A stretch of 40,694 nucleotides of DNA, from contig KE560844.1 of assembly GCA_000442015.1 (NCBI GenBank), positions 1 to 40,694 on the forward strand, in the 5' to 3' direction. The notes below the pieces were generated by a model. It did no database searches and was not told where the DNA came from. It saw only the letters and a list, made by a program, of their open reading frames with translations. The position numbers were made by a program, and so were the translations under genes. This DNA is from Rozella allomycis CSF55 (taxonomy: Eukaryota). This document shows positions 8,566 through 34,713 of the stretch, piece after piece. Numbering within the stretch: position 1 is the first letter of the stretch; each line of letters begins with the position of its first letter.

Positions 8566-10677
8566 TTAATTCCAGAGTTGTATTGTTCCTTCCGATCCCC
8601 CAGTCGCCAAAATGTCTGTTTTGATATCGATGGCAACCGACTGACACGATTTTTGTGCGCCTTTTAAAGTGTTTAGAACTTCATCTTTCTCGTAATTGTA
8701 GCTTTTTATCATAATAACTATTTTTACAGTTTGCAATCTCCATTAGCTTGAGCTAAAGCAATTGTTGTACCTCTTGCATCTAGTACAACCTTCTGAACAG
8801 AAGATGGGCCAAAATTATTTGTTTTAAGCTCTCGTGTGTTTCTTGTATCCCAGACTTTTACCACACCATCCAAATCACATGAAACAAACAATGTTCCCTA
8901 GATAGTAAAATGTATATGTTTTACCGATAGCGAAAACGACCCATGAACTACCGCATTCATATGCCCATACAATGATTGAGTACAAATGCCAGTTCTTGCA
9001 TCCCATTGTGAGATTGTTCGATCTCCTGAGCAACTCCATAGAAGGTTTGTGTAAGGCTTGAATGTGACAAAATTTACACTATCAGCGTGGCCCCGAAAAG
9101 TTAGTTTTGATTTACCACTAATATATTTCTACGTGATGCTTTACGTTCTTAAATCAAACAGGCGGGCAGTTTGATCCATAGAGCCAGAAGCAAGAAAATC
9201 ACCTAAGTCGTGAAATGCACAAGTCCAGACAGGTTGTGTATGATCTTTTAATTGCCTGACAGTTTGCCCATTATCAATGTTCCAAAGGCGAATCGTGCCA
9301 TCACCCGAACTAGTGGCAATCAAATTTTCTCTTCTCTTATGGGCATTAAAGAAATTACTTTGGATGAAAGTCGGAGTCCGCTACCCAATCCTTATGACCA
9401 TTTCCTGTTCTAATATGCTCCCCACTTGGTACGCTCCAAAGTTTCCATGTTCGGTCATCGGATGTAGACAAAAGCAAATTTTTGCTAGGAGAAAATTTAA
9501 GTCATTTATTAGATTTGGATATAATTTACGAGCTTACAGCCATAGAATGCGCTTTAATGCTAAGACCAGCCTTGTAGCTTAGTGCTTTACTTGAGAGTGA
9601 AGTCAATTTTTCACTGTTTTCTGCAAAAGGATTATTTCTATCTTCATTGGGTAGATAGTTTCCTAATGCTTTATTTGAGCTTAGTTGAACAGATTTTCTA
9701 CCATCATCATTATTTCTGGCAATGTTATCTTTGATGGCATATTTAAACCCATACTTTTAACTTTTTCTTCTATCTTGTTAACTCTGTAGAGCTACGTTTA
9801 TGTGAATAAAGTCTAGTACACTTCCGCTTTTTTCGTCTATCATTTTGTCTCTTTCTAAAGTTATCATAGTCTTTTCTTTCATCAATAATTCATATTTTTG
9901 TTGCCAATGCTTTAAAGTAGGCTCTATTTGCTCTAATTTGTTAGCTAATTTTTTGTAATCGCTCAATAATCGGTTCTTTTCTTGAGCGATTCTCTTGTGG
10001 TGTAATCTGTGGAAGTCTCTTTCTTTTTTAATTTTATAAAAAGTGGATTTGATGTTTCTTTTTTAAATTTACAGGAAAATTACGCGATGCTAGATTTATA
10101 AGCCTGAATTTCTTCTTGCGCTTTATGGAGTTCGGCATTCAAAACAATGTTTTGACTTTGTAAGTCATCTACTTCGGGAAGATCATTCTTTGAGATTTGA
10201 CCTGTTTGAATTTTTTCAAACCATTCGTTCTATCACTGCCTATTTTCAGAATTACTTGAAAAGCATCCAATGAGTTTTCAAGCTCATACTGTATGAAAAA
10301 ATTGCGGATAAAGTCATCCAATGTCTCAGTATATCTCTTAATTTCCGAGGATGCAAAGTTATTTTTTTGGCATCCATCAGACTGAACTTGCTGATCCATA
10401 AAGTTCTTTTGGTGCAACATTTGGACAACCTTATCAAGACTTTCCTCCTCTTCTTCGATATCAGACATGTCTACATCATCAAGTGGAATTTCATGATATT
10501 CGATCTCTTCATCATCTGCGATGTGTAATTCTTTTGTTAAAAGCTCAATTTCTATATGTGCCTTCTAAGACAGTTACTAAGATTAAGGTCCTCACGTTGA
10601 TCCTCGAAAGCCATATCATTATCTAAAAGATAGTTAGAGCTTCTTCTTCTGGAAGATGAACTAGAAACTGCTGCCAT
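8566..10677 (-). CDS. SPAG16: Flagellar central-apparatus WD40 protein SPAG16/PF20
   Basis: DDFIRNFF...LDAFQNEWFE, KKERDFHRLHHKRIAQEKNRL, and seven-blade WD40 with GHKDWVADSDFHP, DHTQPVWTCAFHDLGDFLASGSMD, FRGHADSVN; about 10 introns, one probably GT-TG. Confidence 0.9.
9503..9529 (-). other. Predicted non-canonical GT-TG intron (27 nt) in SPAG16
   Basis: gtaaattatatccaaatctaataaatg; removal gives HSMAVSSLKFSPSKNLLLSTSDDRTWKLW, a complete WD repeat. The next usable AG (45 nt) deletes LKFSPS. Confidence 0.7.
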
Positions 10678-10783
10678 TAAAGTAAAACGTAAACAAACAG
10701 CTTGATACTGGATTTTAAAGAGACGTATTAATAAAATAAAGTGAAACATGTTCGGACATATAAATATAATCCCGAAACATTGT

Positions 10784-13530
10784 TTATTGTTTAAATGTCT
10801 TTATTACGCTTTGACCTCCTACGTATATTTGTTGCAAAGAATCCTATTATCTATAAAAGAATTTTAATTACAGATCCATGCTGCCGAAAAATGATAGGCC
10901 TAATGTGGATGTCCTGGTTAAAATAGTACAACCTTCCTTGGTTAATAAAGCGTCTTCTGATGTCAGAAGGCCTCAGATTCTTGATGGAAAACTTGATGTC
11001 TAAACCATTAAAAATCCCTGGTTTTGAATTTGATTTGCGATTAACCCGACCATTATATGTTTTTGTCTGATCTCGTTGTTGCTCATTTATTCTAAGAAGA
11101 GTGTCAAAGGGTTTAGGCCTTATCACTTTAATATTTTTATATCCCAAGCCTTTTCCTGATACCGAAAAGTTGAGATCTCCATCTCTTATTTTTGAGGTAT
11201 GCATGCCGCTAAGCTTGTTTATTCTTTGCTTATTCTTAAATTCATGTTTTTCTGTTTGGTCTTCAAATTTAAAGTTGAAATCAAAGTCGTGGTGATTAAT
11301 CTCATCAATCTAATATATTTGCATATCCATTTTTACTTGATACGAAACTTTTTTGGCCAATAGGTTCGCATAATTATTGGTACTATTTTGCATTCTTTTA
11401 ATGAAAAAAGGTTGGAGACCGGACTCGTTATTATTTAAGTGTGAGGCCAGTCTAATTGTCTGGGCTGGTGAGAAATGTAGTATTCGGCTTTTGTCAAGGT
11501 CCGATCTACCTGTACGTGGTATTTCAAACTCAAAATCACTGATTTCTAGGTTCTAGTTTTAAAAAAGCCTTACCGGGCTCAACGAAATCTTCCTCATTCA
11601 TTAAAACATAATCTTTTTGTGACTCTAGTCTTGATTTCGGCTTTATTCCATGTTTTTCAAGAAGTCCAGAGATAGGATATCCCTAGAAAGAAATGTTTTT
11701 GGGGTATACTTGAGATAATAAGTTTGAAATTTGAAGTGCTGTATCTTTCTTTGAAAGAACTTGAAGAATATCTTTGGCGTAGTACTTGTTCGCGCCTATT
11801 AGCCTAAGAACTTCTGATGGCTTAATGTTGTACTATACTGAGAAAATTTAAAGATTACAGTCTCCATATTTCGTATAACGTTGGCTTTATCCAGTTCTTC
11901 TTGGTCCCCAATTATCCCATATGTAGCCAAAGGAGATACTGTGCCTTGAGCGATGTGCCGTTTTAATTCATCTATCTTCACGACTATTAATGTTTTAAAC
12001 ACAAAAGAACTTACTCCTTTTTCTTGGTGACAAGGGTTGCGACGAGAAACTTTGATCAATTAAAGCTGATGAATTTCGAATATCTTCATCATTTCTCTTT
12101 TTGGACTATTTTTAAAGGCTATTGCGTCTTACTCTTTTCAGATTGAATTCATTTTCCTCCAAATCAAGTGCCCCCGTTAAGTTGTAAAATTTCTTTGAGG
12201 CATCTGCTACATTTCCATATGTGGTAATTTCAAATACCTGTTAAAACAAATTGATTTCAATACCATGAGTCTATTAGACGATATGCAGTAGAGGTACATA
12301 TACGGCGTTAGTAAAAGTTTTGTTACAGGCGATGGCACATTTATTTGAAAAATTAACTGCCCTTTTCCAATATCCCAAAATCTACAGGTACAATCTGCGC
12401 TGGAACTGACAAGTAGACTATTTAATAGTATTACTACAGCATACTCTGAATTTATGGTAAACTGAAGGCCAATAACAGGCCCTTCATGGAAAAAAGTATA
12501 TATAAGATCTGCATGATAATTTTGGGGAAAAGTGGTTTCACCTATATATACTTCAGGTTATGCCACATTGAACTCCTCTCTAGTGATGTTTATATATCTA
12601 TGTGCGTTGTTTGACATTTCTGCTTGCTAGTTTTGACGTATTAGTAATATTACTTCCCTGCTACGCTTTATTTCATCAAGAGATTTAGAATACGAAACTG
12701 TGTTCCAAACCTTGCATTGTCCATTGAAATCACCCGTAGCCATTAAAATATTGTGTGATGAAAATGCTATACTACATATGCTGCTTGAATGACAAGATAA
12801 AGTGGTATTTGATTCAATATTTCTACTTATATTTGTAGGAGATATAGTATGTAGTTCAATGCCCTCCTTCCAATTCCAGGTGTGAATGGAACCATCGTCA
12901 CAACCACATGAAATTACATTGAAATTTTCATAGCATATATTAAAGGCACCAATACTAGAGCTATGCCTTAAAAATGAGTGAATGATATCGCCAGAATCCC
13001 AATCCCAAATTAGGATTTTTCCATCAATAGAACTAGAAAATAAGAATCTATCATCATCAGAGAACATGAGAGATAAAACCGGGCCAAGATGACCTGAAAG
13101 TTTTCCACTACTAGTTTCATTGTGTCTTTTACCGAAACCCTTTTTGACTTTCAAAATGCCACAAAATAATTTTCGAATCATTTGAACCAGTAGCTAAAAT
13201 ATCTCCATTGTTTGAAAATTTTATGTCTCTTATAATATCCTTATGAAAAAATGACCCGCTCTTTCCTAAATCACATGTTTTTTGATAAGTTTCTAAATTC
13301 CAAAGAGAAATCCAAGTTTCTGTGGCAAGTGCAAGCCTGTGTAGGTCATAAAAGATATCAAAAGTGAATATTTCAAACTCAGTGGCCAAACAATCATTCA
13401 GAGTGCATGAAATTGGTCTTCGCCCCGGTATCTTTTCTTGATGTCCAATAGAATTATCTATTAGTATAACTTAATATAAAATACCTGTAATTATTATTCA
13501 AATAGTTCTACCCCATAATTTCCAAGGCAT
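10784..13530 (-). CDS. WD40-repeat protein with long uncharacterised C-terminal region; contains an unresolved in-frame TAA at 12558-12560
   Basis: WD repeats (HKDIIRDIKFSNNGDILATGSNDSKIILW, GHLGPVLSLMFSDDDRFLFSSSIDGKILIW, HEGPVIGLQFTINSDLLVSSSADCTCRFW) joined by about 10 short introns; the start codon is inferred. Confidence 0.7.
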
Positions 13531-13562
13531 TTATCCAGTATGAAATATAAACAAAACATACA

Positions 13563-16338
13563 ATGAACGTAAGCAATTCGAATGCTAATTCTAATGCTAA
13601 TGCTGATGCAGCACTTCTTCATAGACTTTTTAAAGAAAACAATGATTTAAGAATCAAAATTCATAACTTTCAACGAGAAGTAAAAGACAAATTTCATATT
13701 TAATATTGCTCTTCAATAAAACAGTTCAATTAGAAAATTTAGAGGATGAATTTAGGATTCTAAAAAAGAGTTATGATGAAAAATCTAACGGAAAACAAAG
13801 CAGTCGAGTAAATAGGACGTTTATGAAATGACTAGCCATCAACAGGACAACAACATAGAATTATTCGCCAGACCTCAAATATGCTTCAGTCAAACAGCGT
13901 ATAAAGGCTAAAAATTACTAACAAGGACATAACAGACAGGCCTAGTAGCGGTCCATCTAGTGAGTCAAATTCAATACAAAAAAAGAATGCTGAAATTTTA
14001 AAACTAACGCAAGAAATAGATATATTGAAAGATGCTAATGAGCAAATGGAAACAACAATCGGTAAAACATTCAGGGATATTATAAAAGAACAACTTCAAG
14101 TCGCCGTGAAAGAATTGGAAAAGGTCAATCTAGATCTTAAAGAACAGGCAATCCAAAGGGAGGATTCTCCCGAAGAAGAAAGTAATTTTTATATATAAAA
14201 AATTTAGGGGTTAAACGAGATGGTGCAAATAATACCCAAAAGTTACTTGATGAAATGAATGATTTAAGAAAAAAGAATAAAGAGAACGAAGAATTCGTGG
14301 AACATCTTAAAGCCCAATTTAAAATTCAGATGGCAGAAAATAACAAAAAGAATAATGATCTTCAGAATCAATTGCAGGGAATAGAGTCTGTATGTCTGAT
14401 TTCATTTTTTTACAACTAGTTAGTAGAAGGGATAAAAAGGGAGTATGATGAATTTCTTGAGGTTACAAAACTTGAAAATGAAGCTCAAAGATCGTTACAA
14501 ACGCAAGAATATGAAAGATTGAAACACGATTACGACATTATAAAGTCAAATTCGTTGAATGAAAAGCGCAAAATCCTGGCTGAATTTCAGAATTTGTTAT
14601 ACACTCTGCAGTCAAATTTTGAAGAGTACAAATCTGCAAGTGAATTCATATTTAATCTGGAGATAACAAAGCTTGAAGAGGAATTAGTAAGCCAAGCATT
14701 ACGATTTGAACAAGAAATGATGTAAATGATATATAAAATGGTAATTTAGTTATCTTGTTCAAGCAAAAGATAAGTTTTACACTGAAATGATGATCGCAAA
14801 AGATGCAAAAATCATGAATTTGGTAGAGGGGTCGGATATGCAATCATTAATTCAGAAACATGAAGTTGACTTGGAAAATCTTCGTAGAGATCATGCGCGT
14901 GAAATGGCAAGAATAAGAGATGAGCGAGAATCAGAGCAAAAAAATCTTGTGGCAAATTTAACGAAAAATAATGCTTCATTGGAGGCTAAATGTGATAAGC
15001 TCCAATCTCAAGTCAAGTCATTGGAGCAAAAAATTCGAGAGTTGGTGAATACCATCGAGGGAAAAAATCGTACTATACACGAAAAGGAAGAATCCAAAAA
15101 GCGGTCTGAAGAAGAATATCAAATAAAGTTGGACATAGCTAATCAAAAGATAGAAACATTGGCTCAGGAAAAAGAACATTTGAGACATAAAATCATAAGA
15201 ATGAGCATGGACGCTAAAGGTGAGGGTGAAAATAACATGGAAAATATGCTCAAAAGAATTACCAGAGTATTTATATCATTCATGAATTATAAGGAAACAT
15301 CTGATTTATATATTCAATATGAAAAAATAATGAAAGAGAATAAAAATGTAGAAGAATTGTGTGCAACCCTAACTAAAAAGCTCAAGGAAAGAGACAGATA
15401 TATAACTTTTCTTGAGCGTGAAGTGCAAAGAAGGAATGACGAAATGTCAAACTTAGTATTTTAATTCTGCGTTGAAAGATAGTCTCAAACTTTTGAACGG
15501 TTTTTACTTTCACGCACTCAACAAAAACGACTGGAATCAAAGTTAAAAGAAGCAAAGAAATCTAAGGATCCCAAAACTGAAAACGAGAAAAATAATACAT
15601 TGTATAACTTAAATATTATTTGAATCAAGGCCTGAACTAAAATTACATTTAGATGCTAACCCGAAACAAGAAGAAATTCCTGTCAGGGTACAAGCTAAAC
15701 TAAAGTTTCAACCACCTAAAGACATCGTAAAATTTTATGGTGGCATTAATCAGAGAAAGCTAAGCGAAGGTACTAAAATAGAAAAACGTACGTTAAGTGT
15801 CGAATTGGAGCAAGGATTCGCGTAACATATATTCATAATTATATTGCAAAGATATCTGAAAAGGTTTAACGCTATTTCTAAAGCCTTAAACACCACCAAT
15901 TTCAAGAGATATGCAATATTGTCTAGCATAGATCCTGAAAATGAGGTATCTGAATCAAAAGTACAAAACCTTTGCCAATTAAATTGAGAAAAAGAACTTC
16001 AATATACTTAATGTCATTGAAGAAAAGAGAAAGAACGGAGAAGAAGTCAAAATTTATGCTGAAAGTGATAACCAATTGGGAGTCCAAGAAATGTCGTCAA
16101 CACTGACTAAATCATTAACAGCCATGATCCATGACCCAGAAAAACATTCTAATTTAGATATCATGCGAGTAAGGTCTATCTACTAATGTAAAAGCCTCTA
16201 CAACATGGAAAAGTGTACACTCCAAAACATATTGTTTCTCCTTTATTACATCCAATGAACCACCAATCCAAGACGCCAGAGACTTTCTTAACTTTGAAAG
16301 GAAATAAAGTCACCTTACCCAATGAAAATCTCAAATAA
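13563..16338 (+). CDS. Long coiled-coil protein of unknown function
   Basis: Continuous E/K/L-rich heptad-like reading after removing about 12 introns of 26-30 nt, the first being GT-TG. Confidence 0.75.
13680..13708 (+). other. Predicted non-canonical GT-TG intron (29 nt)
   Basis: gtaaaagacaaatttcatatttaatattg; joins NFQRE|LFNKTVQLENLEDEF. The unspliced reading stops at TAA, the nearby AGs at 13724 and 13733 give stops, and the first in-frame AG is 65 nt away. Confidence 0.65.
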
Positions 16339-17137
16339 ATGCATCTTTGTATTTTTTATCTTATATCTAATATTTTAGGAACAATCCCATTATTTACCAC
16401 GATTGAATGATGTAAGTAATAAATGGACACCTAAATCTCCGTATCCAAGTATGAGACGATTCTTAAAGCACATGTCAAGATGCGTCATTAATTTTATAAT
16501 ATGGCCATATAGTAAAATAAAGTCTTTTCTTTCTTCAAACACCAAATCACACAGCGTTCAAAGCTCCAGAATAAAAAGCATAGAGTATTTACCGGTACAA
16601 AATATGTCAACAAAAAATTAGGATTACCAGAACGTGAAAGATGAAAAACCGCCCGCTTATCGTGAGACTGTTATGGAATCCTTAGCAGACGTAGGTTTAG
16701 TGACTATAGGTAGTTCAATTTCCAATATTTGAGCTAGATGACTTACCTGTAGGACCAGTACACGAATTTGTCCTTGCATTTGCCGGTAATTTGATGGTAA
16801 AATTTAGAAAGGGAGTATACTAATTCCTATTGTTTCGATCATTGTTATAAGGGTGCTTAACAGATCTCACGCCATGAATTTAGGCTCTATATCAGCCTTG
16901 GGAACGTTTCTTATGATTGTTTCCACATTCCAAGACTCATTAATGGAATACTTTCTGCAATTAGAATCCTATCAAGACATCATGGTTTTAAGAAGAAATT
17001 TGCGGTTAATCAAACTTGTTTTCTTTTTTATATCATTTATGGGATATATTATGACTGTCTATGGTTTTTATACGTATAGACACGCCAGACTGTATGCCAA
17101 GCAATTGGCACAAAACGCATGCGACTATGCAGCTTAG
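16322..17137 (+). CDS. Bsd2/NDFIP-like NEDD4/Rsp5 adaptor membrane protein (start uncertain)
   Basis: Spliced product has LPDY and PPAY (PY motifs), IDDLPVG, LNRSHAMNLGSISALG and three hydrophobic segments, matching the Bsd2/NDFIP layout. Confidence 0.72.
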
Positions 17138-17172
17138 TTAAAAATCAGAAAATAAATAAAATAATTTATATT

Positions 17173-17598
17173 TTAATACTCAGGTTTGAATTGGAACAAT
17201 TTAGCGTTGACCTTTTTCTTATCCTTATTGCCGGTAAGTTCTCTTATCAATCGACGACTCCATTTGGGTCTGAAAAAAGGCATCAATTTTGGCCTTTTAG
17301 GCTTTCTTTTTTTCATGAGTCCTTGAGCAACCTTTGTTTTATATTCTTGAATTCGTTTCCTTCTACTCTGACACAATTTTCACAACAGTATTACTCGAAG
17401 ATATTGGGACCAATAATACGATTTACTTTTTCCTTTTCTTGGTAAAAAGTGTAGTTTCCTCATTTGAATTTGTGGGAATTCAATATTTCTACCTGAATTG
17501 GTGTAGCAAGAGTTAGATATTGAGAAAACAACGGGCCTTTCAGTAAAAAACGATCTTACAAATCCCCCAATCCGAGTTAGGGCTACTTTTCTAAACAT
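17173..17598 (-). CDS. Small highly basic protein with mitochondrial presequence-like N-terminus (possibly mitoribosomal)
   Basis: MFRKVALTRIGGFVRSFF..., one 27-nt GT-AG intron, K/R-rich second exon; no family recognised. Confidence 0.55.
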
Positions 17599-17656
17599 GG
17601 ACATTTTCTGTAATCAGCAATATATCAGTGTCCGAATTTTCTCAATTTCTTACCGG

Positions 17657-17929
17657 ATGGCTGATTCCAAATTGAATACCAATAAGGCTCGATTCAAGCC
17701 ATTAAATAAAGAACAGAGAGATAAATGCTATGAAGCCAAAGACCTATATTTTAAATACTGCAATAGTTATGAAAAAGAAGATTCTGATGATTGTATCAAA
17801 TTAAATGAGCATTTCGCTCAGTCATGTCCAGAATCATGGGTAGTTCATTTTAAAGAGTTAAGAATGAGAGAAGTAGAGTACCAAAAACGATATGATGAAT
17901 ATAAGAAGCAAGGATATAATGTTGAATAA
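17657..17929 (+). CDS. COA6: Cytochrome c oxidase assembly factor 6-like
   Basis: KEQRDKCYEAKDLYFKYC...CIKLNEHFAQSCPESWVVHF (COX6B/COA6 fold, CPxSWVxHF). Confidence 0.8.
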   Translation: MADSKLNTNKARFKPLNKEQRDKCYEAKDLYFKYCNSYEKEDSDDCIKLNEHFAQSCPESWVVHFKELRMREVEYQKRYDEYKKQGYNVE

Positions 17930-17937
17930 ACGTAAAT

Positions 17938-19721
17938 TTATTGGACATCATCAGGCCCAATCATTTTCTCGGGCCTTACATAACGGTCAAACTCTTCAGA
18001 AGTCAGTAGCTTTAAGCTAAGTACAGCCTCTTTCAACGTTGTTCCTTCTTTATGAGCTTTCTTTGCTGCTTTCGCGGCGTCTAAGTTGATGAAAAAGTGG
18101 AATACTACTGTCATATCCAATATAGGGGTTTAATGATGTAACTAACATTAAAGACTCCTTCATGATTGTATTTATTCTTTCTTCATTAGCCTTGATCCCT
18201 ATGACACAATTTTTTCTAAATGATTCACATGCGTCTGTTAATAGTCTGGCAGATTGTAGAAAATTCTTTATTATTACAGGCTTAAAAACATTTAGCTATA
18301 AATTTTTAAAGTTATTATTACTTCAAAGTGACCGTTAGAACCGCTTATTGAAATAGCGGCATTGTTCCCCATAACCTGCGCACAGACCATAGTCATCGCT
18401 TCGCATTGAGTTGGATTAACCTTTAAGATTGATCATGCATTTTTACCTTTCCTGGCATTATTGATGATCCGGGTTCATTTTCAGGCAATAGTAGTTCTCC
18501 AAGACCACATCTTGGTCCTGATCCCAAAAGCCTTATATCATTAGCTATTTTCATCAAAGAAACAGCACAAGTATTAAGCGCTCCATGAGCATGGACTAGA
18601 GCGTCATGGGCAGCGAGTGCTTCAAACTCTAAAATTAGTGAAACGTATATACTTTATTAGCTGCTGGCTTAAACGGCAGTTTAGTTATTTTTCCTATTTC
18701 ATTTGCTATCTCTTCATCAAATCCTTTAAATGTATTAAGTCCCAATTATATTAACATTTTGCACAAAATTACTGTTCCAACAGCAGTGCCACCTTGGGCA
18801 AGTTCCAATAATGCCGGATATACTTGCTCAATTCTATGTATTGACATCTCTAACTGTCTAACGTATCCGCTAAATTCTTGTCCAAGAGTAAGCGGTGTGG
18901 CATCTTGAAGGTGCGTTCTCCCGATTTTTATAATTGAACCGAATCTCTTTACACAATCTTCAAATGCTAATTTCAATTTTTTTAACGAAGGTAATAATTC
19001 ATTATGCAAACTTAAAGCTCCAGCTACGTGCATGACAGTAGGAAATCTGACCTACTAATTGTTATTGTTGATTTACGTATCATTTGATGACTGTGATCGA
19101 TTAACGTGGTCATTTGGGTGTACTGGCTTCTTGCTTCCCAATTCTCCTCCCAAAATTTCAATAGCCCTATTTGAAATAACTTCATTGGCATTCATATTTG
19201 ATTGGGTGCCTGATCCAGTTTGCCAAACAACAAGTGGGAAGTGATCCATTAGTTTTCCTTGGTAAACCTCTTCGGAGGCTTCAATAATCGATTTTCCAAT
19301 ACTTTCATTCAAACCATGATTCATATTAACAATTGCTGCTGCCTTCTTTACAATTCCAAAGGCTCTTATTAATTCTTCCGGCATTCTCTCATTTGGTCCT
19401 CCAATGTCAAAATTTTGGAGACTTCTAAAATTATCTGTATAAGCAAATATGACCTTTGTGTTTGAGCGCCCCAATATTTATCACTTGGCACTTGAATTTC
19501 ACCAAAAGTATCCCTTTCAATCCTAAATGTTGCCTAGTATTAATAACTATTTGATATATACGTAATAACGATGAATAAGACTTATATTGAACTTCGCCCA
19601 TTGTAAATGCTAAGATTAACATCAATATGGGACAACGAGAAGAAATATTGGATTGAAAATCGTTATTATTTAGAATACCTACCTTTGCCTTTGACAACGT
19701 ATGTTGCAGATTCGAGTACAT
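17938..19721 (-). CDS. FUM1: Fumarate hydratase class II, mitochondrial
   Basis: [82 protein letters not shown]; 9 introns including a 73-nt one and a GT-TG one. Confidence 0.97.
18743..18772 (-). other. Predicted non-canonical GT-TG intron (30 nt) in fumarase
   Basis: gtaattttgtgcaaaatgttaatataattg separates GGTAVGT from GLNTFKGF; it contains an in-frame TAA and no AG dinucleotide. Confidence 0.9.
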
Positions 19722-20012
19722 TGGTGGCTTATTCCCAAACAAAATTTGATTAATTCGATAATTCAAATTAGATCAATTTAAGAAGTAATTATATTCTAAT
19801 TATTTAATTTTAGTCCTTAAATATCTATAACTCTGCCCTACATCACTTAACGATTGTAAAGCAACGTTAAATAAGCGACCAAGCTAAGGTAGGCTCTATC
19901 TCATTTTTGGGATTTTACAACGAGAGGATAATTTATGTGTTATCTTGACGACCCCTATTTAAATGACATAATTAGAAATTAAGCCCCCGACAACCATTTT
20001 TTGTTTGTGGAG

Positions 20013-20420
20013 ATGGATTCCGTTGATTCAGATAAAGTAGAACAAGTCAAATCATTTGAATTTATGCCTTATCCTCCTTACCAATATCATCTTGATATGA
20101 TGCGAAGCTCAACTCCGAAAATTTTCAGATTTCCAAAAGAACATTCTCATGAAACTGATATAGAATCATGGATGCTTTATCAAGCCCTTAACAATAGGCA
20201 ACAATTTTTTGAAGTGGAAACTCCAGACGAACAACCAATAATTAACTTAAGATCAAATTCAGATTCAACATATACTTCGGGGTTTAAGAAACGAGAACGA
20301 GAAAGAATAAAGAAAAATAATAGAAAAATAGATAAAGAAGAAGATCTTGTTCCCTTAAAACCGGAAAAAATAACATCTCTGGTGTTAAATGCATGCCCTT
20401 TGGTGGGTCCAAATGAATAA
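20013..20420 (+). CDS. Hypothetical protein
   Basis: Uninterrupted ORF with plausible composition filling the gap between genes; no motif recognised, start uncertain. Confidence 0.5.
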   Translation: MDSVDSDKVEQVKSFEFMPYPPYQYHLDMMRSSTPKIFRFPKEHSHETDIESWMLYQALNNRQQFFEVETPDEQPIINLRSNSDSTYTSGFKKRERERIKKNNRKIDKEEDLVPLKPEKITSLVLNACPLVGPNE

Positions 20421-20441
20421 AATGGCTTTATTAAAGACCTT

Positions 20442-22483: not shown

Positions 22484-22537
22484 TATAGCTAAAGTATAAA
22501 TATTGAAATATAATAACAATAAAATAAATCGAATCGT

Positions 22538-24238
22538 TTATTGCGCAGTATTCAGGCGTGAATTTAAACATTTTTCCAATTTCGCTGCAATCAGAGCTAT
22601 CAATTTATCGCTTTCACTTTCAGAGTTGTCACAATTGCAAGGTGCGGTGGGTTGTTGGTTTTGTTCTTGTATTTTCATTGAAAGCTCATCTATTTTGCTT
22701 TGAAGGTCATTTATTTTTTCCGCATAAAACTTGTGGACTTCTTCCAATTCACCAGAAGAATCATCGACAACAGTGTCACCGTCGGAGTCATCATTGGCCA
22801 TATCATCTTCAAATTCATTATTTTGATCTTTCGAATCAGCAACATCGTCGACTTCAGTTTCGTCATCAGAGTCTTCTATAGTTGATGGAACTTCACTTTC
22901 AAGTTTCTCAAACAAGATTTCTTCATCTTTCTCGGAGGGTCTTTTTATTAATGTAAAAATATGTTACTTTTCCTTTGCGGAAATTAGACCATCTTCTTTA
23001 TCCAATTTTACATCTCCCAAATCAAATTGGTTCAAATCCACATCATCTTTAATTTTCTCAGATATTCTAATCCATAAGTATTTAATTCATTACAAATCAA
23101 GAAATTTTAATTCATCTTCTGAAAACGATGCAATTTCTTTGTCACGAACTTCTACTTGACTGTTGGTCGCATTGCCTTTAACTTTTATTTCAGCCTCATT
23201 ATCTACTTTCGCTGCATCACTATTTTAAAAACATTATAGGATTTACTCTTGAGAGTTTGGTACCTGCTCTTGAGCTAATTTTGATTCTTCCTCTAAAAAT
23301 TCCGCCAAATTAACATTTTCAATCCCTGATGAAATACTTTTTAATATTGATAATGTTATTTACGATTCTAAAAATATTAAATCATCAAGAGAATAATCAG
23401 TTGTACCCCGCAAATTAATTTCCTTGAGGCTGTTTTCTTTTCGAACTTCTGGTTTAGATTCAACAACATTAGACACAACATTATCGCTCTTAGTATTCAC
23501 GCTTTGCAGTCGTCTCCAGCAAGTAACCAATTCTTGACTTAATTTGGTAACAAGATTTCTTTTCGTGTAAAATTCATCTTCGAATTTCCTCGTCGGCACA
23601 GTAATTGGTGTAATTTCTTGATTTATCATAGTTCTGCACTTTGTTAACTCTTTTTTAAGTGCGTCCATATGATAAGAAATTTGCGTCTCGAGTTTTTTCG
23701 GTAAAGCCTGTGGTCTTTTCGATTTCTTTTCCCGCTTATGACCTTTAACATGGCTATTGAAACCATCCTGTCTATTAAATATTCTTCCACATTCGAAGCA
23801 TCTATACTGAGTCATGACCATATTCACTGCGGAGGCCAAATTAATATAAAACTTGGAATACGCATTGTGGAGGACTGTCTCGTCCTTTTCAACCATGATA
23901 TCATGTCTAGTGGACGCCGACATATCATCCCAAAACACCTTTGACGATGGATTAATTAACGGTGGCAGTAACAGAAACGTGCTGTTTGCTCTGTGCGCCT
24001 TGGCGTAGCAAGCATGCAAATGTTTATGAGCGCCTGATTGCAGCATCGGCATTCCGCAAATGTGGCAGTAGGGGTGTTTAATATTCTTGAAATTCTGCTG
24101 AAACTCGGGTGGCAGCAATGTGGCGAGTTCCGTAGCGTTTGGGCTGAGAAAAGTGTCTTTTACAACCCTGTTATATTTTTTGCGACAGAAAACGGCGAGA
24201 GCGAAATAAAAGATGAGCACAATCCCAATTTTTTTCAT
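22538..24238 (-). CDS. Zinc-finger protein (C2HC + C2H2) with N-terminal signal-peptide-like segment and acidic C-terminus
   Basis: MKKIGIVLIFYFALAVFC; CHICG..HLHAC; YRCFECGRIFNRQDGFNSHVKGH. Four 27-28 nt GT-AG introns join ORF 23360-24238 to ORF 22538-22915 in frame. Confidence 0.78.
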
Positions 24239-24423
24239 CCTGGATGTGGCTTGGTTGCGTGCATTTTAATACAGGGTTTAATAGCAGGCTGGCCATGCTA
24301 ATTTGATAGATTGATTAAATGGGGATTATGGAATTTTAGATGTTGTGTGGAATGTGTAGTTTTTTATGCTGATGATTTGGTTTGTGGTCACATTGTTTTT
24401 GGGGAATGCGCGGGATGTGGCGC

Positions 24424-27400
24424 ATGATGGATCCAGAGAATCGACCTTTCTGGGTCGTGAAATCGGGCGTGGAATTGTTGAGTAACGAAAAGAAAAAGGA
24501 TGTGATACATAATATGCAGAGTCATTTGGAGTTTACGGTATATTAAACGTTTTGGATTTAATAGGCAAGTGTCAATCGATTAGTAGTTGGCAGCCCGTAT
24601 AGTCTTGTTATTGTAAAGAAAGAGCTGTATCTAGTTAATTCTGATTATTCTTTGAAATGTTCATTTGAGTTTGGTAGATATTAAATGTATTTGTGATAGA
24701 AAATGATTTAGTTGAGATGAAGATGATAAGGGAATACGTTGTAGGATATGATAAAACGAATATTTTATATGTGTTGGATTTGAAAGAAGAAAAGGAAGTG
24801 TTTTCCCAAAACTTGGGATTTGATATTCAGCAATTGAGAATATTTGAAAAGGAGGATGGAACTTTAGATGTAGTAATAATTACAGAGGATAAAATTGTAC
24901 TATTTATAAGTGAACTTGATATACAAAGCATATCGGTTGAGCAAGTAAAGATGATACAATGTGAAAGATAAGATACAGAATAAAATGATACGAATTGATT
25001 GCGAAGAAANCCAAGTAATATATGCGAGAGATGTGGATGAATATTTGTTTTGTGGGAGTGGAGAGAATGTACTAGTCAAGATAGGAAGGAATGAATGTAT
25101 TGATATTATAGACTATTGCCCATTCAATTCATTTATCAAGAACATCGAGACAAGTGAGTATGAAGAGAACAGAGGGATTTTACTGACTATTGAAGAATTA
25201 AGTTTGTATTTGTGGGATTACAAGTCGATGATAGCAGTAGCATGGAAAGCATTTGATAAAAGAATTAGTGATGTGAAGATATGCAATCAATTCATTTTAT
25301 GTATTTGTGACAATGATTTAAATATATTGGAAATTCCAACATTGAATGTTTTGCATTCTTATACATTTAAAGAAGAAATTACGTTTGTTGATTGCAGTTT
25401 AAATGTAATAGAAATTAAAAGTTGAGATAGTCTGATAGTGTGTTTATTAAGCACGGCTGTGAATTGAAATCATTTCATGAATCTAATCCATTAAAGTTGT
25501 ATGGCAANAAGCATTTGATAAAAGAATTATTGATGTGAAGATATGCAATCAATTCATTTTATGTATTTGTGACAATGATTTAAATATATTGGAAATTCCA
25601 ACATTGAATGTTTTGTATTCCTATAAATTTAAAGAAGAAATAACGTTTGTTGAATGCAGTTTAAATGTAATAGAAATTGAAAGTTAAAATAGTCTGATAG
25701 TGTGTTTATTAAGCATGGATGTGAATTGAAATCATTTCATGAATCTAATCCATTAAAGTTGTATGGCAAGAGAATTAAAGAGAATGATTTTGAGCAAGCT
25801 AAATTGATAGCGAAAGAATTTAATTTAAATACAATGGTAAATACTATAAATGTTCTTTTTAAAGGATGTGTTGAAATCTAAATTTATTTATTTACGAGAG
25901 CAAGACAATGTTGTGGTTAATGAAGAGATGATAAATGAGCTGAATGAGATTGAAGATGAAGAATTTATTTTAGATTTTTGTTTGAATGTTGAATGTGAAT
26001 CTATTGAATCGTTTAATTTGATTTATGATTTTGGGATTGAAAGGTTTCCAATTATGCAAAGTTTGGTTTATAAGTTTGGAACGTTTAAATTGTTGAATTT
26101 GAGTGTAAAAGAATGGAAGAGATTTAAGAGAATTGGAATGTATGAAGAAGCAATAAAGTATTTGAAGCAAGGAGATATTTACAAGTCATTTGTTTTAATA
26201 AAGAGACATTTTGAAGAGATTGAAAATGTTTTGCAAGTGTTAGAGAATATTCCTACTAATAGAAACCCGAAAGATTATTCTATTCTAGTTTCTATTTTGA
26301 TTAAAGAAGAAATGAGTGAATGGGTGGAGAAAAGATGTAGGTTTATTGAACATTACCTTCAAAATGCATCGTTAGCTTTAGAGTTTTTGAATATAGTTTG
26401 GAAGTTTAATTCAAATGAGAATATTAATAGATTGAAGGTGGAATTGGAGTTGATTGTTTATTTGAAAGAGAAACATTCAATAATAAAAAGATTGGGTGAT
26501 GATCTAAGTGACCAGGGTGTGATAAATGTGATGATGGAAAGAATAACTTGCATTGAATTGATACCAAAAGAAATAGAAAATCATATTAAACCATTTTGTA
26601 TTAAGAGGGGGATTGATTATGAAGAATTGATTGTTGATTATTGTTTAAAAGTTGAAGATTTAGATTTTATTTCTTCTTTAATAAACTGTTTGAAATCAGA
26701 TGATAAAAAGATGGAATTAATTTTGAATTTATTAAAAGATTTGAATTCAGAAAATTTAATAAATTCAACAATTTTGTTAAATGAATTTACAAATTCAGAT
26801 TCAGATTCAACTTTGAATAATTTAATAAAAATGGTAAATTTAATTTAATAAAATTTTAAAGGGATTTGAATTAAAGAATTGTTTAAAGTTTAATGAATTT
26901 GAAGAACAAATAAAATTGTTAAAAACAAGATCTATTTTAAAGAAATATAAAATATCTTTAAATTCAATTTCATCTTCTTTATTTTCATTTACAACTTTAA
27001 TGAGAATAATAAATAATCCAAATGAAGATGCAGTTTCAGATTGTTTAAAGATAACAAGAGAATTTAACAATTGGAATATTTATGAAATTTATTTTAATAG
27101 ATTATGTTTTCTATGTAGATTTAATAAAGCCAATAATATTGAATATTTAAATGAATTGGAAGTGGAAATGAAACACAAAGTGTTAAAGAATTGTTCTGGT
27201 TGGTTGATTCAATTAATAGATTGTTCAAAAGAAGATGATTTAAATGATGAAGAATTGAAATGGGTTTATGAATCAATGCTTCCAATCTCAAAAGAATTGT
27301 TTAACACTCACAATCAACTATTGAATGAAAGTTTATTTAAAAATATTTCATTTAATGAGTTTACAAACATTATTAGTTTCTGTAATTGTTTAGAAAGACT

Positions 27401-30400
27401 TTCTTTACTCTACATTGAGTTTAATTTACCTTTTACTGTTTCTCAGCTAATGAACACTTCATTTGTTGAAATGACTTGCAAAGATTACATTAAATCTCAA
27501 GTAAATACAATTAGTTTTCATTTTAAAGAAATCATTTAATAATTCTAAAATAAATAGATTGGCTTACTTGCTAGGAATATCCAAAGTTACAATGCATTTA
27601 CTATATGCTGAAGAGAGTGCTAATCAAGGTGATCATTTGAAAATGATTCAATTATGCAATGTAAACATTTATTAATTAATTTAATAAGATTATTGTCAAT
27701 GAATATTTAGATTCATTTACTAGTGTAGAATTGTTAAGAATTTGTATTAGATTTATAAAATATTTAAACTCTCATTGGGAGAATTACAATCAGTTTGATT
27801 CAATTGAATTTATTTTAAATCAAATTTTATATTTCATTAACATTTCTTTATCTTTTTGTGATTCTGAATTTCTAGATTGTAAATCTATTTTTAATCTTTT
27901 AAATAGTTTGTTTGGAAGAGTATAAATTAGTCTATATTTTATTGATAATATTTAAAAAGACTGAAGATGGAGATTATTTAAAACCAATTTCAAATTCAGA
28001 TAAAAATTTGTATTTTTCAGAAATGTTTTTTGAACAAGGGTTGATCATGCCCACAAGAGAAAGTTTTGGAGAAGCTTTGAAATGTTTTTGTAAATCATCT
28101 AAAACATTTAAATTAATATCAAAAGAATCAAAACTTAAAGGTAGAATGAGCTATGAAGAGAATCCGTTAAATGGACTAGTTGAAATGTTGACTGAACAGG
28201 GGTATTATCAATCAGCATTGTTAATACGAAATAATTTGATGATATCGGAACCAAACAAGACTATAATTGAGCCTTATTTAAGAAAAGTGTTTAGTTTTAA
28301 AGAATTGGATTGTGAAGTGGCAGTTTCATTGATGATATCATTGCCAGTTGAAACAGCATTTAATTTATTCAGAGTAAAACAACTTTATTATTAATAAAGG
28401 GTGGATTGAGTACAATTGGAAATGATTATTTGAGATTAATAAAGTTGGCTAGTATTGGTATGGCGTGTGGTAATTTATGGAATCAGAGATCATTTTTTGT
28501 TGATTGTCAGCAATTGGAAAAGAATGGGATTTGGTGGTACCATTTGAATGTACTTGAAATACCATTTGATAATGTGAAATTCAGAACTAGTAAATTTGGG
28601 GAATACCAAAAGACGTTAATTCCAATGATATTAGAAAAGAGTGATTTGGATATTTCATCAGTTAAAGATTATTGTGAATGTTTTGATATTAATAAAGACT
28701 TTGCTTACTTTGAATTTATTCAACAGAGTATTAAAAAGAGAGAGTTTAAAGGAAATGTTTTAAATGTTATTGAAGAAATTAAAAATAAAGAAAAATTGAA
28801 AGATTTATTGTTGAATGAAATTTTAAACAATATTTCTCCTTTTGATTATTCAAGTAAAGTGAAATTGCGATTTAAAAATAGAAATTGAATTTGTTTTAAA
28901 ATTGATTTTGAAAATTGATAAAGAAAATTCATTTTGTAAGAAATCTGAATCTATTTTGAAATGTTTAATCAACTATGAACGAAATAAAGATCCATTGAAA
29001 GAAGAATTTAAATTTGTTAAAGATTATGATAAGAAATCTATTCAAGAATTAATCAATGTAAATTTTATAAAGCTTAGTTTAATTAGAATTATCCTGCAAG
29101 TAGAAAAAGAATTTCATTTGAATTGATTTTAAAAGATCCGTGGCTGATTCTTAATCATGAATTAGATTTTAATTCTTTGTCTATTTTAATTGGTTTATCA
29201 ATCCCATTAGAAATAGAAATTTCAAAGTTTTACATTTGTGTTATAAATAAATTACTGTCTAATCCTTGTTTGAATCAACAAATAATAAATCAGATTAAGA
29301 ATTGTTTGGAATTGATTAAAGATAAACAAGTTGCTGTTGGGGTTGCTAAATATTGTGCTGATCAATTTGATTCTGGAAATTTCAAAATTGAGTTTCTTAA
29401 ATTGTCTTTCAAACTGGCCAATGAATGGAAAAATGAAATTGAAGGGGGAGGGGGTGATAAGAGAGTTGGAAGAGATGAAAAGATTAAAAGTGGAGACGAC
29501 AACAGTAACGCTAATGAAGATGATAAAGAAAATGTTAAAATAAACACTACAGATACAATGGATACAATGAGTCATGACGCTATTGATAAAGACTCTGGTG
29601 ACTCTACAGATACAAAAGGAGAATTGAATCTTTGTTTGAAAGCTTTGAATAAATTAGAAAAGACAATTTCATTTTCAGAAACAGAATTTCAATTAAAAGA
29701 ATTGGGATTAGAAAAATTAATGAATGAAAATGTTGAAAAAATAATTTCTGATCTATTTGAAATTCAAGAAATAGATTTTAATAAAGTTTGTTCAGAAATA
29801 AGTTATAGACATTCATTAGATTTTGAAAATGTCAAAGTAAATTTATTAAATGAAAAAATTATTAAAAATACAACAGATCCAAATGATTTAAATTTTATTT
29901 ATATTTTAAGAGTTACTAGAAGTGAATTAAACACTTTTAAAAATGAAGAAAAGATTAATAAACATATTTTAAATTTACTTTCTTCAATGCCAACAGATAA
30001 ACAAATTCATTGGCTATTAAACATTGCTTATCAAGTAATCTCTTCTCTTTAAACTAATCTAGCAAAAAACTAATAAGATTACAACTCAAATGAGAATCAG
30101 AGCTTTATTTGTTCTCTTATCAAACTATTCAGAATTTGAAATTAATAAAATTCACAACTTTAACGAGATTAAAGATTACCACAAAATTCTACTCTTCATG
30201 GCCACCTTTGAAGAATTGAAAATTCCAAAAACTATTAAAGAATTCATCACTCAAGATAAACAACTATTAGCTAAATCAATCTACTTAAATTACAACAATG
30301 ATCCAAAAGCAATTCAATTAATCTTCAGTTTGAATACTTTTTATTCTTTAACTGATATCTCATTGTGGAAAAATGTCATTAATTCATTTCTATCTTTCAA

Positions 30401-31180
30401 CCAATTCAATCTAATCATCGATTCAATCTACTTTTTGTTTTCTAAAAATCTATTGAATTCTATTAACAATATTACTTTTATTATTCATCAATTATTATCC
30501 AACTGTTTATCCAACAATTACAATTCAAACAACACTTTAAACAATTACAGTTCAAACAATTACAGTTCAAATAATTCAAACAGTTCAAATAATGCAAAGT
30601 TAGCTTTTAGTTGCTTAAGGCTATTGTTTGAAATTTCAAAAATTAAATTAAATGAATCTCAAATTAAATCAGATCTAAATCTCATAAATGATCCTCTAAT
30701 CAAATGTTGCTCAATCTTTGTTCTTTTCCCAAACGATTTCAATGTAATTCATGTCTTAAATCTCTAAATTAGAATTCCTTGAATTCTGCAAACATTTTAA
30801 CTCTTGTAAACCTTTTAAATGATTCTGAATTCTTTTTAAAAGTATTAAACTCTTTTCTTTCTCATGTAGCGATTTATTATACTCGAAATATTCAATTATG
30901 TCAACCAAAACAAACTGTACAGCATATTCGTTAATACTTGTCATCTTTTGGATTTCATTAATTATTTAATTGATAAAGATGACATTCATGCTTTAATTAA
31001 TCATCTACTAGAATTTCAAATGTAATTTTTTAGGTCTCTCATCAAATTAGGTTGGATGAAGCATCTAAAGTTTGTTCAAAGTATTTCAAATCTAAACATC
31101 AAATTAACGTTCCATTAGAAGATTCACTTCAAGTAACAAATTCTTAAATTATTCAATAGAAATTTATATCCCTCCAATAA
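24424..31180 (+). CDS. KNTC1: Kinetochore-associated protein 1 / Rough deal (Rod, RZZ complex)
   Basis: Very large protein with beta-propeller-like N-terminus and helical solenoid; segments DCEVAVSLMISLP, GNDYLRLIKLASIG, WWYHLNVLEIPFD, ISPFDY, KDPWLILNHEL, RIRALFVL resemble Rod/Rod_C. About 17 short introns; interrupted by an assembly duplication at 25247-25769. Confidence 0.72.
25247..25769 (+). repeat. ~261-bp tandem duplication separated by a single N (probable uncollapsed alleles)
   Basis: 25247-25507 repeats at 25509-25769 with about 11 substitutions; N at 25508. Confidence 0.9.
30513..30593 (+). repeat. Imperfect 15-nt coding minisatellite (AACAATTACAGTTCA) encoding an N/S-rich tract
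   Basis: NNYNSNNTLNNYSSNNYSSNNSNSSNN within the Rod ORF. Confidence 0.8.
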
Positions 31181-31232
31181 ATGAAATTCATTTTTTAATA
31201 AATTCATTTTCTATAATGCCAATAAAATTTAT

Positions 31233-32404
31233 TTATGTAACATTCTTGTTATAGTTAATATAACCAATTCCAACACATCCCAAAACAACTGTTTCTGTTT
31301 CATGGTCTGCTTCAATCTTAAACTTGACTCCAAAATACTTTTTCAAATCCCTCAAAAATTGCACACTATAAACAACATCACCATATCTTACCTTTGATCA
31401 GTCAATTTCCCAAACCTAACCTTTGAAACATCTTCAGGACACAACACCATCAACAACAACACCAACCACTGGCAACTCGCATCAAAACACCCACCCCATT
31501 CTATCTGCTGCAACAATCTAGCTGCATTCGTCTTGCCCATTTCTTCAGGTACCTGTCCAGCTTCTCCAATCATCTCCGAAGACAACAATACTCCAGTTGT
31601 AGACTCGGCAACAAGTATAATTCCATATCCAGGCGACTTTCCTGATTCATGGCCTTTAAATACATCTGTATGCACATATATATCAGGTATAAACTGGTTC
31701 AACACAGATCTAGCACCATCAACCATTCTATTTGCCATTTGCGGTGTCACCCGGGACGCATGCGCTATACCCCTAATTCTTTTGATTTTCCCACAGTCAA
31801 GCATTTCCAATGGCTTCAGTTGTTTTACAACAGGGCATTTGAAAAAAACCTCGCCGCCTCCCATAGGCGCATATCCTCTCTTTACAATCTATTCAATTAT
31901 TTCATTTCATTTTACTTTAAATTCAGGCTCTTGCGCAATGCCAAACTGCTTCAACACTGGCAACAAAACAGTTCTGAACGCATCAACACTGCAATCAACA
32001 TCATTATTCGTCACCCCTCTAATCGTCAGCAAAACCGGCTCCTTGCAAAACGGCGCAATAGCCAACAGCGGCTCCAACCAGTAAGTAACACATCTCTCAT
32101 TCGTCGCGTCAAAAGTAACCTTGCCTCCAACCAAAACACCCGGCCGAAACACAACACTCGTCCCCGTATAGCTAATCTGCACAGTCGATCCATTCGTAAT
32201 AGCTTCTATCAATTTCAAAAATTTAATTTCCGTTTCTAAACAAACACATCACATTAACTTACCACTCAATCCAGGATTCGTACTGTTCGAACGTATCTTT
32301 TCTATTTTCACCGCCTTTTGACTAAGCGCAGACATCATTATACGCTGCCGGAAATGCGAACTGCCTTGGAACGTCAGATATTCTTGATGAGAGCCTTTTA
32401 TCAT
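31233..32404 (-). CDS. RCL1: RNA 3'-terminal phosphate cyclase-like protein Rcl1
   Basis: FQGSSHFRQR, IRSNSTNPGL, TNGSTVQISYTGT, LEPLLAIAPFCK, KRGYAPMGGGEV, GKSPGYGIILVAESTTG, CVGIGYINYNK; 3 introns. Confidence 0.95.
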
Positions 32405-33490: not shown

Positions 33491-33669
33491 ATAGTTTTTT
33501 CGCGTGTTAGATTTGCCATTTTATCATGTTAATGTCTGATTTGGAGTCATATTTGTATGTTTGAACACGTATAATTAGAGCAAAAACCACTACAAGTCTG
33601 ACATTAATTTCCAGTGTGAAAGAACAAATTTCAATATATCATTTTTTCGGTGAATTTCTCAAAACAGGA

Positions 33670-34713
33670 ATGGAAAAATTCAATGACTGGAGGGTATGAA
33701 ATATTTTCTGATAGCAATAATATAGGATCCGGGTACAGGAATTCATCCATTTCTTCCTACACAACGTAAATATAATGTGGCCACAGTTTTTTTCGGATTG
33801 TTTCTTGTTTTGGTGAGAATACCAATTATAGCGACTTTAATGGTGTATTGGTTAATCTTTGACACTATTTTATCCTTTCTACGTTTAAAAAAAGTACAAG
33901 TTCTAATCGATCGGGCCTTTGGAAAGTCGATTTTGGTTTTATGTGGTTTCTTATGCGTTAACTGTGCACCATTTGTTAAGAGGTAATCGTATTTTATATC
34001 CTAAATTACTGGAAATCAAAGCAAACCAACGCACAGGTTTCTGATAACGCAATAATAGTCAGTCATTTTAGCTCTTATATCGATATTATTTATTGCAAAT
34101 ATATGTAGGGCTTTACCATTGAGTTTAATATTTTAGATATTCTTGCTTATTTCTGTTTCCAGACGTCAAAGACGATACTTGTGTGCAAGTTTTATCATTT
34201 TACGATGCGTTAATATGTTGCATAACAAAGAGAGATTATATTGGCAAACGTGTATTAGTCGAAAACTTATCAAATGATATATATGTACTTTTTATTGAAG
34301 TAAAAGATCAATAACTTTGTCATAGGGTACAACGTCGAATGGTCGGGCTATTTTGAAGCCAGCTAACATTAATCTACAACCTATCAAAGAAAGATTACAT
34401 TTGATTTCGATAAGATATGAGTTTTTAAACTTTTCGCCCACATATGTTTGCGAATCTTTCTCGAGTCACATTTTTGGTTTATGCAGCCAAGTATTTTTCC
34501 ATCTTTCCTATAATATTCTAGTTTTATAATTCAATCACAATACGATCAATGAATAATTTTCAATTGTCTCGTGAATTACTGAGCGAAGAACCATTATTGC
34601 AATCTGTTTGCTTTGCTCTTTCTCGATTATCAAAACTTCGGTTGCTTTCGGTTAAATCAGCTGAAGATAAAACGGCATTTTTAAAATTTTACAATAAAAA
34701 GAAAAACAAATGA
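33670..34713 (+). CDS. LOA1: Lysophosphatidic acid acyltransferase Loa1/Vps66-like
   Basis: MEKFNDWR|DPGTGIHPFLP, VSHFSSYIDIIY, FIE|GTTSNGRAIL, EDKTAFLKFY; 5 introns, one probably GT-TG. Confidence 0.88.
33983..34011 (+). other. Predicted non-canonical GT-TG intron (29 nt) in LOA1
   Basis: gtaatcgtattttatatcctaaattactg; the phase-2 donor AAGAG|GTAATC joins in frame at CTG|G, while the AGs at 34021 and 34036 are out of phase. Confidence 0.65.

Follow-up and report, generated by a model that had tools for sequence, protein, structure and literature searches.

Candidate GT-TG introns among the ultrashort introns of Rozella allomycis CSF55

Can the introns of a wild-type eukaryote end in TG where AG is expected? 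Few rules of gene structure are as firm as the 3′ AG of U2-type introns, and the question is raised by four short stretches in a nuclear contig of the fungal parasite Rozella allomycis CSF55 (KE560844.1), which was analysed over its full 40,694 bases and is referred to below as the window. Exon-sized open frames are found in the window under the standard genetic code, and in four genes the frame appears to be interrupted by an intron with an aberrant 3′ end. The explanation that we consider best, with a probability of roughly 60%, is that the four are ordinary U2-type ultrashort introns of R. allomycis in which UG takes the place of AG as the 3′ splice site.

Site 1 is a stretch of 27 nucleotides (nt) in phase 2 (9503-9529, minus strand) within a SPAG16-like WD40 gene. 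Site 2 (29 nt, phase 0; 13680-13708, plus strand) follows the first exon (13563-13679) of a coiled-coil gene, site 3 (30 nt, phase 0; 18743-18772, minus strand) splits GGTAVGT from GLN in a class II fumarase gene, and site 4 (29 nt, phase 2; 33983-34011, plus strand) lies in an acyltransferase-like gene. All four begin with GTAA and end with TG. If left unspliced, site 1 would place TAA and TGA in frame, and sites 2, 3 and 4 one TAA each (standard code). The coordinates, strands, GTAA donors, unspliced stops and frame-restoring TG at 27, 29, 30 and 29 nt had been put forward in an initial annotation of this DNA and were borne out at all four sites. The same annotation held that such introns preserve their terminal G and its distance from the donor, in agreement with TG ends that fall at 27-30 nt and all finish in G; besides this G, none of the four contains a G from position 19 on. 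Their AT content is 76-83%. None has the 3′ AG of the Rozella ultrashort introns, all four ending in TG.

What do the other introns of the window look like? A home-made dynamic-programming gene finder, based on codon log-odds, GT donors and AG acceptors and with models that mirrored better ones on the opposite strand dropped, returned 23 gene models with 121 introns. Their lengths are 24 nt (1 intron), 25 nt (2), 26 nt (31), 27 nt (28), 28 nt (31), 29 nt (13), 30 nt (5), 31 nt (8), 45 nt (1) and 63 nt (1); 119 of the 121 measure 24-31 nt, a range that also contains the four putative TG introns, and 116 measure 26-31 nt. Pairs of GTA and TAG are likewise enriched at a spacing of 26-31 nt. Sites 1 (45 nt) and 3 (63 nt) supply the sole length outliers of this AG-only model. 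Among the 119 short AG introns the donors are GTAA (74), GTAT (23), GTAC (12), GTAG (7) and others (3), with a GTA start in 116, and the 3′ ends are TAG (68), AAG (36), CAG (11) and GAG (4). Mean AT content is 75% in AG introns versus 65.5% in exons. The gene finder cannot separate ends that lie 3 nt apart (it picked GT..AA at site 3 and GT..TA at site 2), so that the exact TG ends are fixed only by homology. Open-frame scans of the window for "needed" non-AG introns gave noise too high for dinucleotides to be ranked.

Might the introns at the four sites end instead at an AG further downstream? The first AG at least 8 nt past the donor ends at 45, 45, 49 and 39 nt at sites 1-4 (site 2 has an earlier AG at intron positions 6-7), and hence none falls in the 24-31 nt range of the AG-only introns; the statement of the initial annotation that no AG is present at 25-32 nt is upheld. 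Left out of that annotation were distal AGs that keep the frame, found at 45, 65, 63 and 80 nt at sites 1-4, and a 47-nt option at site 4 that is weighed below. AG ends within 80 nt of the donor number four to five at sites 2-4 and one at site 1. Counted from the TG, the next AG is at +18, +16, +19 and +10 nt, and we estimate that an AG 10-19 nt past the TG is roughly what chance would give. Were the true introns to end at the distal AGs, the proteins would simply lack the intervening residues or exon. Both NCBI protein sets are modelled in this manner, with a 45-nt intron at site 1 and the skipping of an exon by a 154-nt intron at site 4, and a frame-keeping AG is available at every site. Introns of 45-154 nt would however be needed in a window where nearly all are 24-31 nt long, use of the nearest AG leads to a stop at site 2 (after 2 codons), site 3 (after 5) and site 4 (after 11) and removes the conserved LKFSPS at site 1, and conserved protein sequence would be lost at three of the sites, as set out in the following paragraphs. 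We regard exclusive use of AG as distinctly unlikely.

The fumarase gene provides the sharpest definition of the intron borders. The exon upstream of site 3 (18773-19045, minus strand; 91 codons as queried) aligns to residues 152-242 of 6n1m_A (E = 1.4e-30), and the exon downstream (18653-18742, minus strand; 30 codons) continues at residues 243-272 of that chain and also aligns to 1yfm_A 260-288 and 5upp_A 238-267. The PDB search with the downstream exon retrieved 21 sequences, of which 15 are fumarases and the other six are unrelated weak matches. In 15 of the 15 PDB fumarases matched by both exons the two alignments abut residue to residue, from which it follows that exactly 30 nt must go and that GGTAVGT is joined to GLN. 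The full fumarase model contains GGTAVGTGLN and a further 10-residue motif, which we take to be the fumarase signature loop, and shows no other break. The AG at 49 nt shifts the frame, with the stop after 5 codons given above, and the in-frame AG at 63 nt would remove 11 residues from a block that is ungapped in all 15 PDB fumarases, which argues against an AG end here. Because a G follows the TG, the borders can slide by one base to TA..GG; GT..TG is our reading, since it keeps the invariant donor of the genome. No match to 28 bases of the site 3 intron turned up when metagenome contigs were scanned for exact identity.

At site 1 the evidence comes from orthologues. A representative-library search with the public protein yielded 150 proteins, mostly long multi-WD40 proteins, from which 13 orthologues of ~580-720 residues, matching in 1-4 stretches, were used. 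In tblastn alignments to the window all 13 gap exactly 9 codons (27 nt) at 9502-9528. The 18 nt directly downstream (9485-9502, minus strand) code for the WD40 strand LKFSPS; LKFSPSK of the window pairs with xxFHPxK of the 13 orthologues, and generic WD40 chains align their FSP strand to the LKFSPS segment. Both public models (P0001 and P0153; EPZ35401.1 and RKP19508.1) drop this strand by means of a 45-nt intron (9485-9529) and, using the AG at 45 nt, read ...AVSS joined to KNLLLSTSDD. A strand present in 13 of 13 orthologues would thereby be lost, which is a further point against AG ends only. The same public models also lose conserved WD40 segments at two further introns that are solvable as 27-nt GT-AG introns, and it follows that the public SPAG16-like model is unreliable and evidently was not built from transcripts; it does not show how the gene is really spliced. 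The SPAG16 label of the initial annotation was not confirmed by name, the public name being "WD40 repeat-like protein"; an exon of the first gene of the window is 100% identical to the partial R. allomycis CSF55 protein of that name. As a separate observation, the predicted introns of the public models look systematically too long for a genome with introns of 26-31 nt, both in this region (8700-10600, minus strand) and around site 4 (33670-34710, plus strand).

Removal of the candidate GT..TG introns thus restores conserved protein at sites 1 and 3. A different reading is that the cell deliberately leaves these introns in, or splices them badly, to hold expression down, or that the genes are decaying pseudogenes. 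Retention would yield premature stops; the fumarase and SPAG16-like genes are nevertheless otherwise intact across 7 and ~12 introns, respectively, with conserved motifs throughout, and we consider both variants very unlikely.

Site 4 is partly supported in the same way. A TAA stands immediately after the donor, and from the GTAATC donor the ends that keep the frame, at eight lengths between 20 and 41 nt, are CT, AA, TA, TG, AA, TC, AA and CA. Downstream lies a 93-nt exon (34012-34104, plus strand) carrying ...IIVSHFSSYIDII..., followed by a hand-read 32-nt GT..AG intron (34105-34136, plus strand) that keeps the frame into YSCLFLFPDVKDD. Both public models (P0002 and P0154; EPZ35413.1 and RKP17402.1) skip the 93-nt exon and join ...PFVKR to YSCLFLFP through a 154-nt intron. 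A single orthologue was found, P0155, a 1-acylglycerol-3-phosphate O-acyltransferase with PF01553 (30% identity, E = 2.7e-11). PFVKR ahead of the site 4 donor aligns to PIVKK of this protein, and the skipped exon resembles, by eye, its ...FIANHSSYLDFLIL...; the fuller stretches compared are ...PIVKKWKLFIANHSSYLDFLIL... of P0155 and ...NAIIVSHFSSYIDIIY... of the skipped 93 nt. A tblastn search gave no alignment over the skipped exon. The resemblance to the SSY(I/L)D block of P0155 makes the exon look real, and a real exon at this position needs an intron upstream; an AG-only model, in contrast, skips it. Splicing to the AG at 39 or 54 nt runs into a stop, and splicing to that at 80 nt costs the protein the strand that precedes the histidine. 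Removal of the putative TG intron would accordingly restore conserved protein here in part. Pfam scans of single exons assigned no family to the acyltransferase-like gene or to the coiled-coil gene. The initial annotation had called the former LOA1, a label that was not confirmed by name, the public name being "hypothetical protein" and that of the one orthologue "1-acylglycerol-3-phosphate O-acyltransferase".

The coiled-coil gene begins with the ATG at 13563. At site 2 the AG at 45 nt brings a stop after 2 codons, and an intron running to the in-frame AG at 65 nt would cost the protein 12 residues. Of the eight frame-compatible lengths tested here and at site 4 (20-41 nt), the one with the TG alone ends in G. 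As judged from sequence, the pattern of the four sites exceeds chance, given the length outliers, the homology at sites 1 and 3 and the sole G end at sites 2 and 4, and at the four loci the TG is probably the only workable 3′ site.

Is TG then used wherever it occurs at a suitable distance? There are 16 TGs at positions 22-26 of AG introns, which indicates that TG is not merely the first acceptable site; AG seems to be preferred over TG when one is near. A loose branch-point-like motif, defined post hoc, is present in the tail of all four TG introns, in 38 of the 119 AG introns and in 33% of shuffled introns. As it is as frequent in shuffled introns as in AG introns, it is no general signal, and its presence in four of four is weak. 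In four AG introns the terminal AG is preceded, at exactly 3 nt, by a TG (...TGNAG), among them those at 1284-1311 and 2659-2686 (28 nt each, minus strand). If TG is usable, such in-frame TG-AG tandems could give alternative products that differ by one codon.

Two other classes of excised element were considered and rejected. Internal eliminated sequences of the ciliate kind do not agree with a fungus relative that uses the standard code, nor with GT..TG borders that have no TA repeat. U12-type introns have the donor (A/G)TATCCTT and the branch site TCCTTAAC, whereas the donors at the four sites are GTAAAT, GTAAAA, GTAATT and GTAATC.

A further question is whether the T at position -2 is present in the DNA itself. 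Contigs of DNA runs X1, X3 and X7 and of RNA run X11 were compared with the window over 9000-28999, a span that includes sites 1-3. The X1 contig over site 1 shows 0 differences from the window, that over site 3 shows 4, all away from the site, and that over site 2 shows 8, the six listed all lying elsewhere; the depth of the X1 contigs is ~280-300. Contigs of X3 and X7 cover sites 1 and 3 and differ from the window at 0.4% (X3) and 1.2-1.7% (X7) of places, and the X7 contig has a gap that leaves 13559-13706 (site 2) uncovered. Errors of assembly or base calling could have changed AG to TG, and the window does have N runs and scattered differences from other assemblies. The separately built X1 contigs nevertheless agree with it at sites 1 and 3 (an agreement that is not fully independent, as the assembly may have been made from X1), and it is very unlikely that one and the same error arose four times at an identical functional position; we give this explanation hardly any credence.

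Differences between alleles are a more serious matter. Minor variants in X1 stand at about one third of the depth, and R. allomycis is reported to be triploid and heterozygous, with many single-nucleotide polymorphisms, in the part of a single-cell genomics study of early fungi that treats this species (PMC6784888). The differences of 0.4-1.7% between the window and contigs of the other DNA runs over 9000-24500, together with the variants at one-third depth, fit the published triploidy and heterozygosity. In such a strain allele-specific lesions are a real rival to use of UG: the assembled haplotype of a triploid, probably asexual strain would carry AG>TG mutations, other alleles would keep AG, and the TG copies would be mis-spliced or degraded. 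The same haplotype, however, shows hardly any other null mutations: in ~11,233 modelled codons, where 5.4% of single substitutions give a stop, ~18 nonsense changes are expected at 1% neutral divergence versus one unexplained stop found (at 12558), a count that is approximate since gene models cannot pass stops. Nonsense targets outnumber splice-site targets by ~3.7 to 1, yet there would be four splice lesions, all of them A>T at -2. The main X1 contigs, moreover, carry T at sites 1 and 3. On balance we judge allele-specific lesions unlikely. The T itself, on which the initial annotation depended, is thus also read in the X1 contigs at these two sites, although other alleles could carry AG.

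That last possibility, in a triploid and heterozygous strain, is one of several points that weigh against the use of UG as a 3′ splice site. No RNA run containing the stretch was found; RNA run X11 gave only 8 pieces of 21-33 letters, the joints of which lie on low-complexity sequence, and these speak neither for nor against joining at the TGs. At site 4 a rival 47-nt intron of the form GTTAAG..AAAG, with a donor 8 bases upstream and its AG at 34020-34021, keeps the frame (hand-read); it would remove VKRKSK, its donor type occurs in at most 1 of the 119 introns and its length is atypical. The support at this site comes from one orthologue of 30% identity, and the case for site 2 consists of frame and intron anatomy without homology. 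Exons contain 26 GTAA...TG stretches that measure 26-31 nt and are evidently unspliced; 11 GTAA...AG stretches of the same lengths inside exons are evidently not removed either. The initial estimate of about 4 in 110-130 introns (~3%) agrees with the four sites set against 119-121 AG introns, a denominator that stems from the home-made gene finder, not from transcripts, and is approximate. In humans, according to Szafranski et al. 2007, a TG does not occur as the sole 3′ site, and mutation of an AG to TG switches splicing to other AGs (PMC2374985).

A complication arises at a junction in another WD40 gene, in which an in-frame TAA at 12558-12560 (minus strand, span 12542-12626) divides two coding stretches. 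No frame-keeping GT-AG intron under ~70 nt was found there, nor, in a hand reading, any frame-keeping TG end at lengths of 21-36 nt from two nearby GT donors. Removal of 24 nt keeps the frame, with borders GT..TA or, if slid by one base, TG..AG. Among the differences listed for the three DNA runs there is no insertion or deletion at this place, and a PDB search for the junction produced generic WD40 matches only. Either a real lesion or a fifth non-canonical intron, different in type from the four, may account for the junction. As no TG end was found for it at these lengths, a rule by which only position -2 is relaxed may be too narrow. The proposal of a relaxed -2 position made in the initial annotation is therefore favoured by intron anatomy and by the homology at sites 1 and 3 and partly at site 4, and its restriction to that one position is called into question.

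Several other features of the window were recorded. Its GC content ranges from 28 to 37%; it is ~28% over 24000-32000 versus 33-37% elsewhere, and 24001-28000 shows a strong positive GC skew of 0.385. A very long gene model on the plus strand (25024-31162) has 16 introns of 26-29 nt. Between the coiled-coil and fumarase genes the plus-strand models at 16330-17510 are weak and broken (scores 12-13). There is a single N at 25010 and at 25508 and a run of 87 N at 40088-40174; the X3 contig has 21 extra letters at 25010, which shows that the assembly of the window is incomplete there.

How might a spliceosome come to use UG? In the post-catalytic spliceosome, as seen by cryo-electron microscopy, the last G of the intron pairs with the first G, and the A at -2 contacts the branch adenosine. 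With a whole intron of 26-31 nt there would be little room for the spliceosome, and after branching the 3′ site would probably be taken at a near-fixed distance. The last G of the intron, which pairs with the first at exon ligation, would be retained, and the A at -2 could be replaced by U when no AG is within reach. We infer that RNA is joined at UG at the four sites, that this joining gives the main product, and that it is brought about by a second step which goes by distance and is less stringent. A bolder proposal, which we put forward tentatively and would not back at even odds, is that R. allomycis routinely makes functional mRNAs from GU-UG introns, with UG as the sole productive 3′ site of ~3% of introns genome-wide and a spliceosome that picks by distance with relaxed proofreading at -2. 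By extrapolation, ~3% of the introns of the genome would amount to several hundred. Behind the relaxed check at -2 there could be second-step or U2AF factors that were lost or have diverged in the reductive lineage toward microsporidia. The initial annotation, which thought of a constitutive splicing mode, had named U2AF1, Prp8, Slu7 and Prp18 as factors that might be altered.

If UG is used, a wild-type organism that needs such sites for essential enzymes, fumarase among them, would offer a natural system for studying how the adenine at -2 is read, and could show which factors enforce it at exon ligation. On the bolder proposal, nature would here provide, in a wild-type organism, the equivalent of the prp18-null phenotype of yeast. 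A more practical consequence is that both public protein sets of this reference species of the Rozella lineage appear to mis-model these genes, with conserved residues or an exon with a catalytic motif being lost, and mis-modelled Rozella proteins feed many phylogenomic and intron-evolution studies of fungi.

How do these candidate introns compare with known systems? A search of the literature on Rozella introns and splicing found no report of TG acceptors, a mention in the 2013 genome paper or its supplements being possible. Ultrashort introns are known from another genome, that of Paramecium, and the GT-TG pair reportedly occurs among the rare non-canonical junctions of humans, as single cases among hundreds of thousands of introns. 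A departure from the canonical borders across a whole lineage has a likeness in a lineage in which 95% of introns are non-canonical, there tied to divergent U2AF and to changes in small nuclear RNAs; that lineage uses many dinucleotides, unlike Rozella, where ~3% of introns would be concerned, the change is a single A>U at -2 and GT is kept.

The human TG sites are the best-documented precedent. Szafranski et al. 2007 verified TG 3′ sites in 36 human genes, always as an alternative to an AG within 28 nt, and the portion of the paper on usage puts the candidate human TGs that are used at ~0.01% (PMC2374985). Like these TG-AG tandems, the Rozella sites would be U2-type GT introns that end in TG, and they have an AG within 28 nt; unlike in the tandems, the partner AG in Rozella gives a stop (sites 2-4) or deletes a conserved strand (site 1). 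Since the nearest AG is unproductive or strand-deleting, the Rozella TG would be the only productive site, in ~3% of introns.

The closest parallel in mechanism is Saccharomyces cerevisiae without Prp18. In the sections of Roy et al. that concern this mutant, yeast lacking Prp18 uses "BG" (and also "HAU") 3′ sites that lie close to the branch point and precede the normal AG, and use of the BG sites is attributed to pairing with the first nucleoside of the intron (PMC10711555). The candidate Rozella 3′ sites similarly keep the G and lack the A at -2. The yeast strain is a mutant and its products, as characterized in those sections, are mostly minor and aberrant, whereas use in Rozella would be wild-type and would give functional mRNAs.

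With regard to intron size the comparison is with Encephalitozoon cuniculi, a member of the microsporidia, to which Rozella is sister. Its introns, of ~25 nt, have standard GT-AG borders, and the passage of Whelan et al. on Rozella states that the ~30-nt introns of that organism lack the E. cuniculi 5′ and branch-point motifs (PMC6349667). In both organisms intron length is tightly fixed at 20-30 nt; the borders described for E. cuniculi in that account are standard GT-AG, with no TG class, in contrast to the four sites reported here. TG 3′ sites are an already known rarity, and the candidate GT-TG introns of R. allomycis would be a new form of it.

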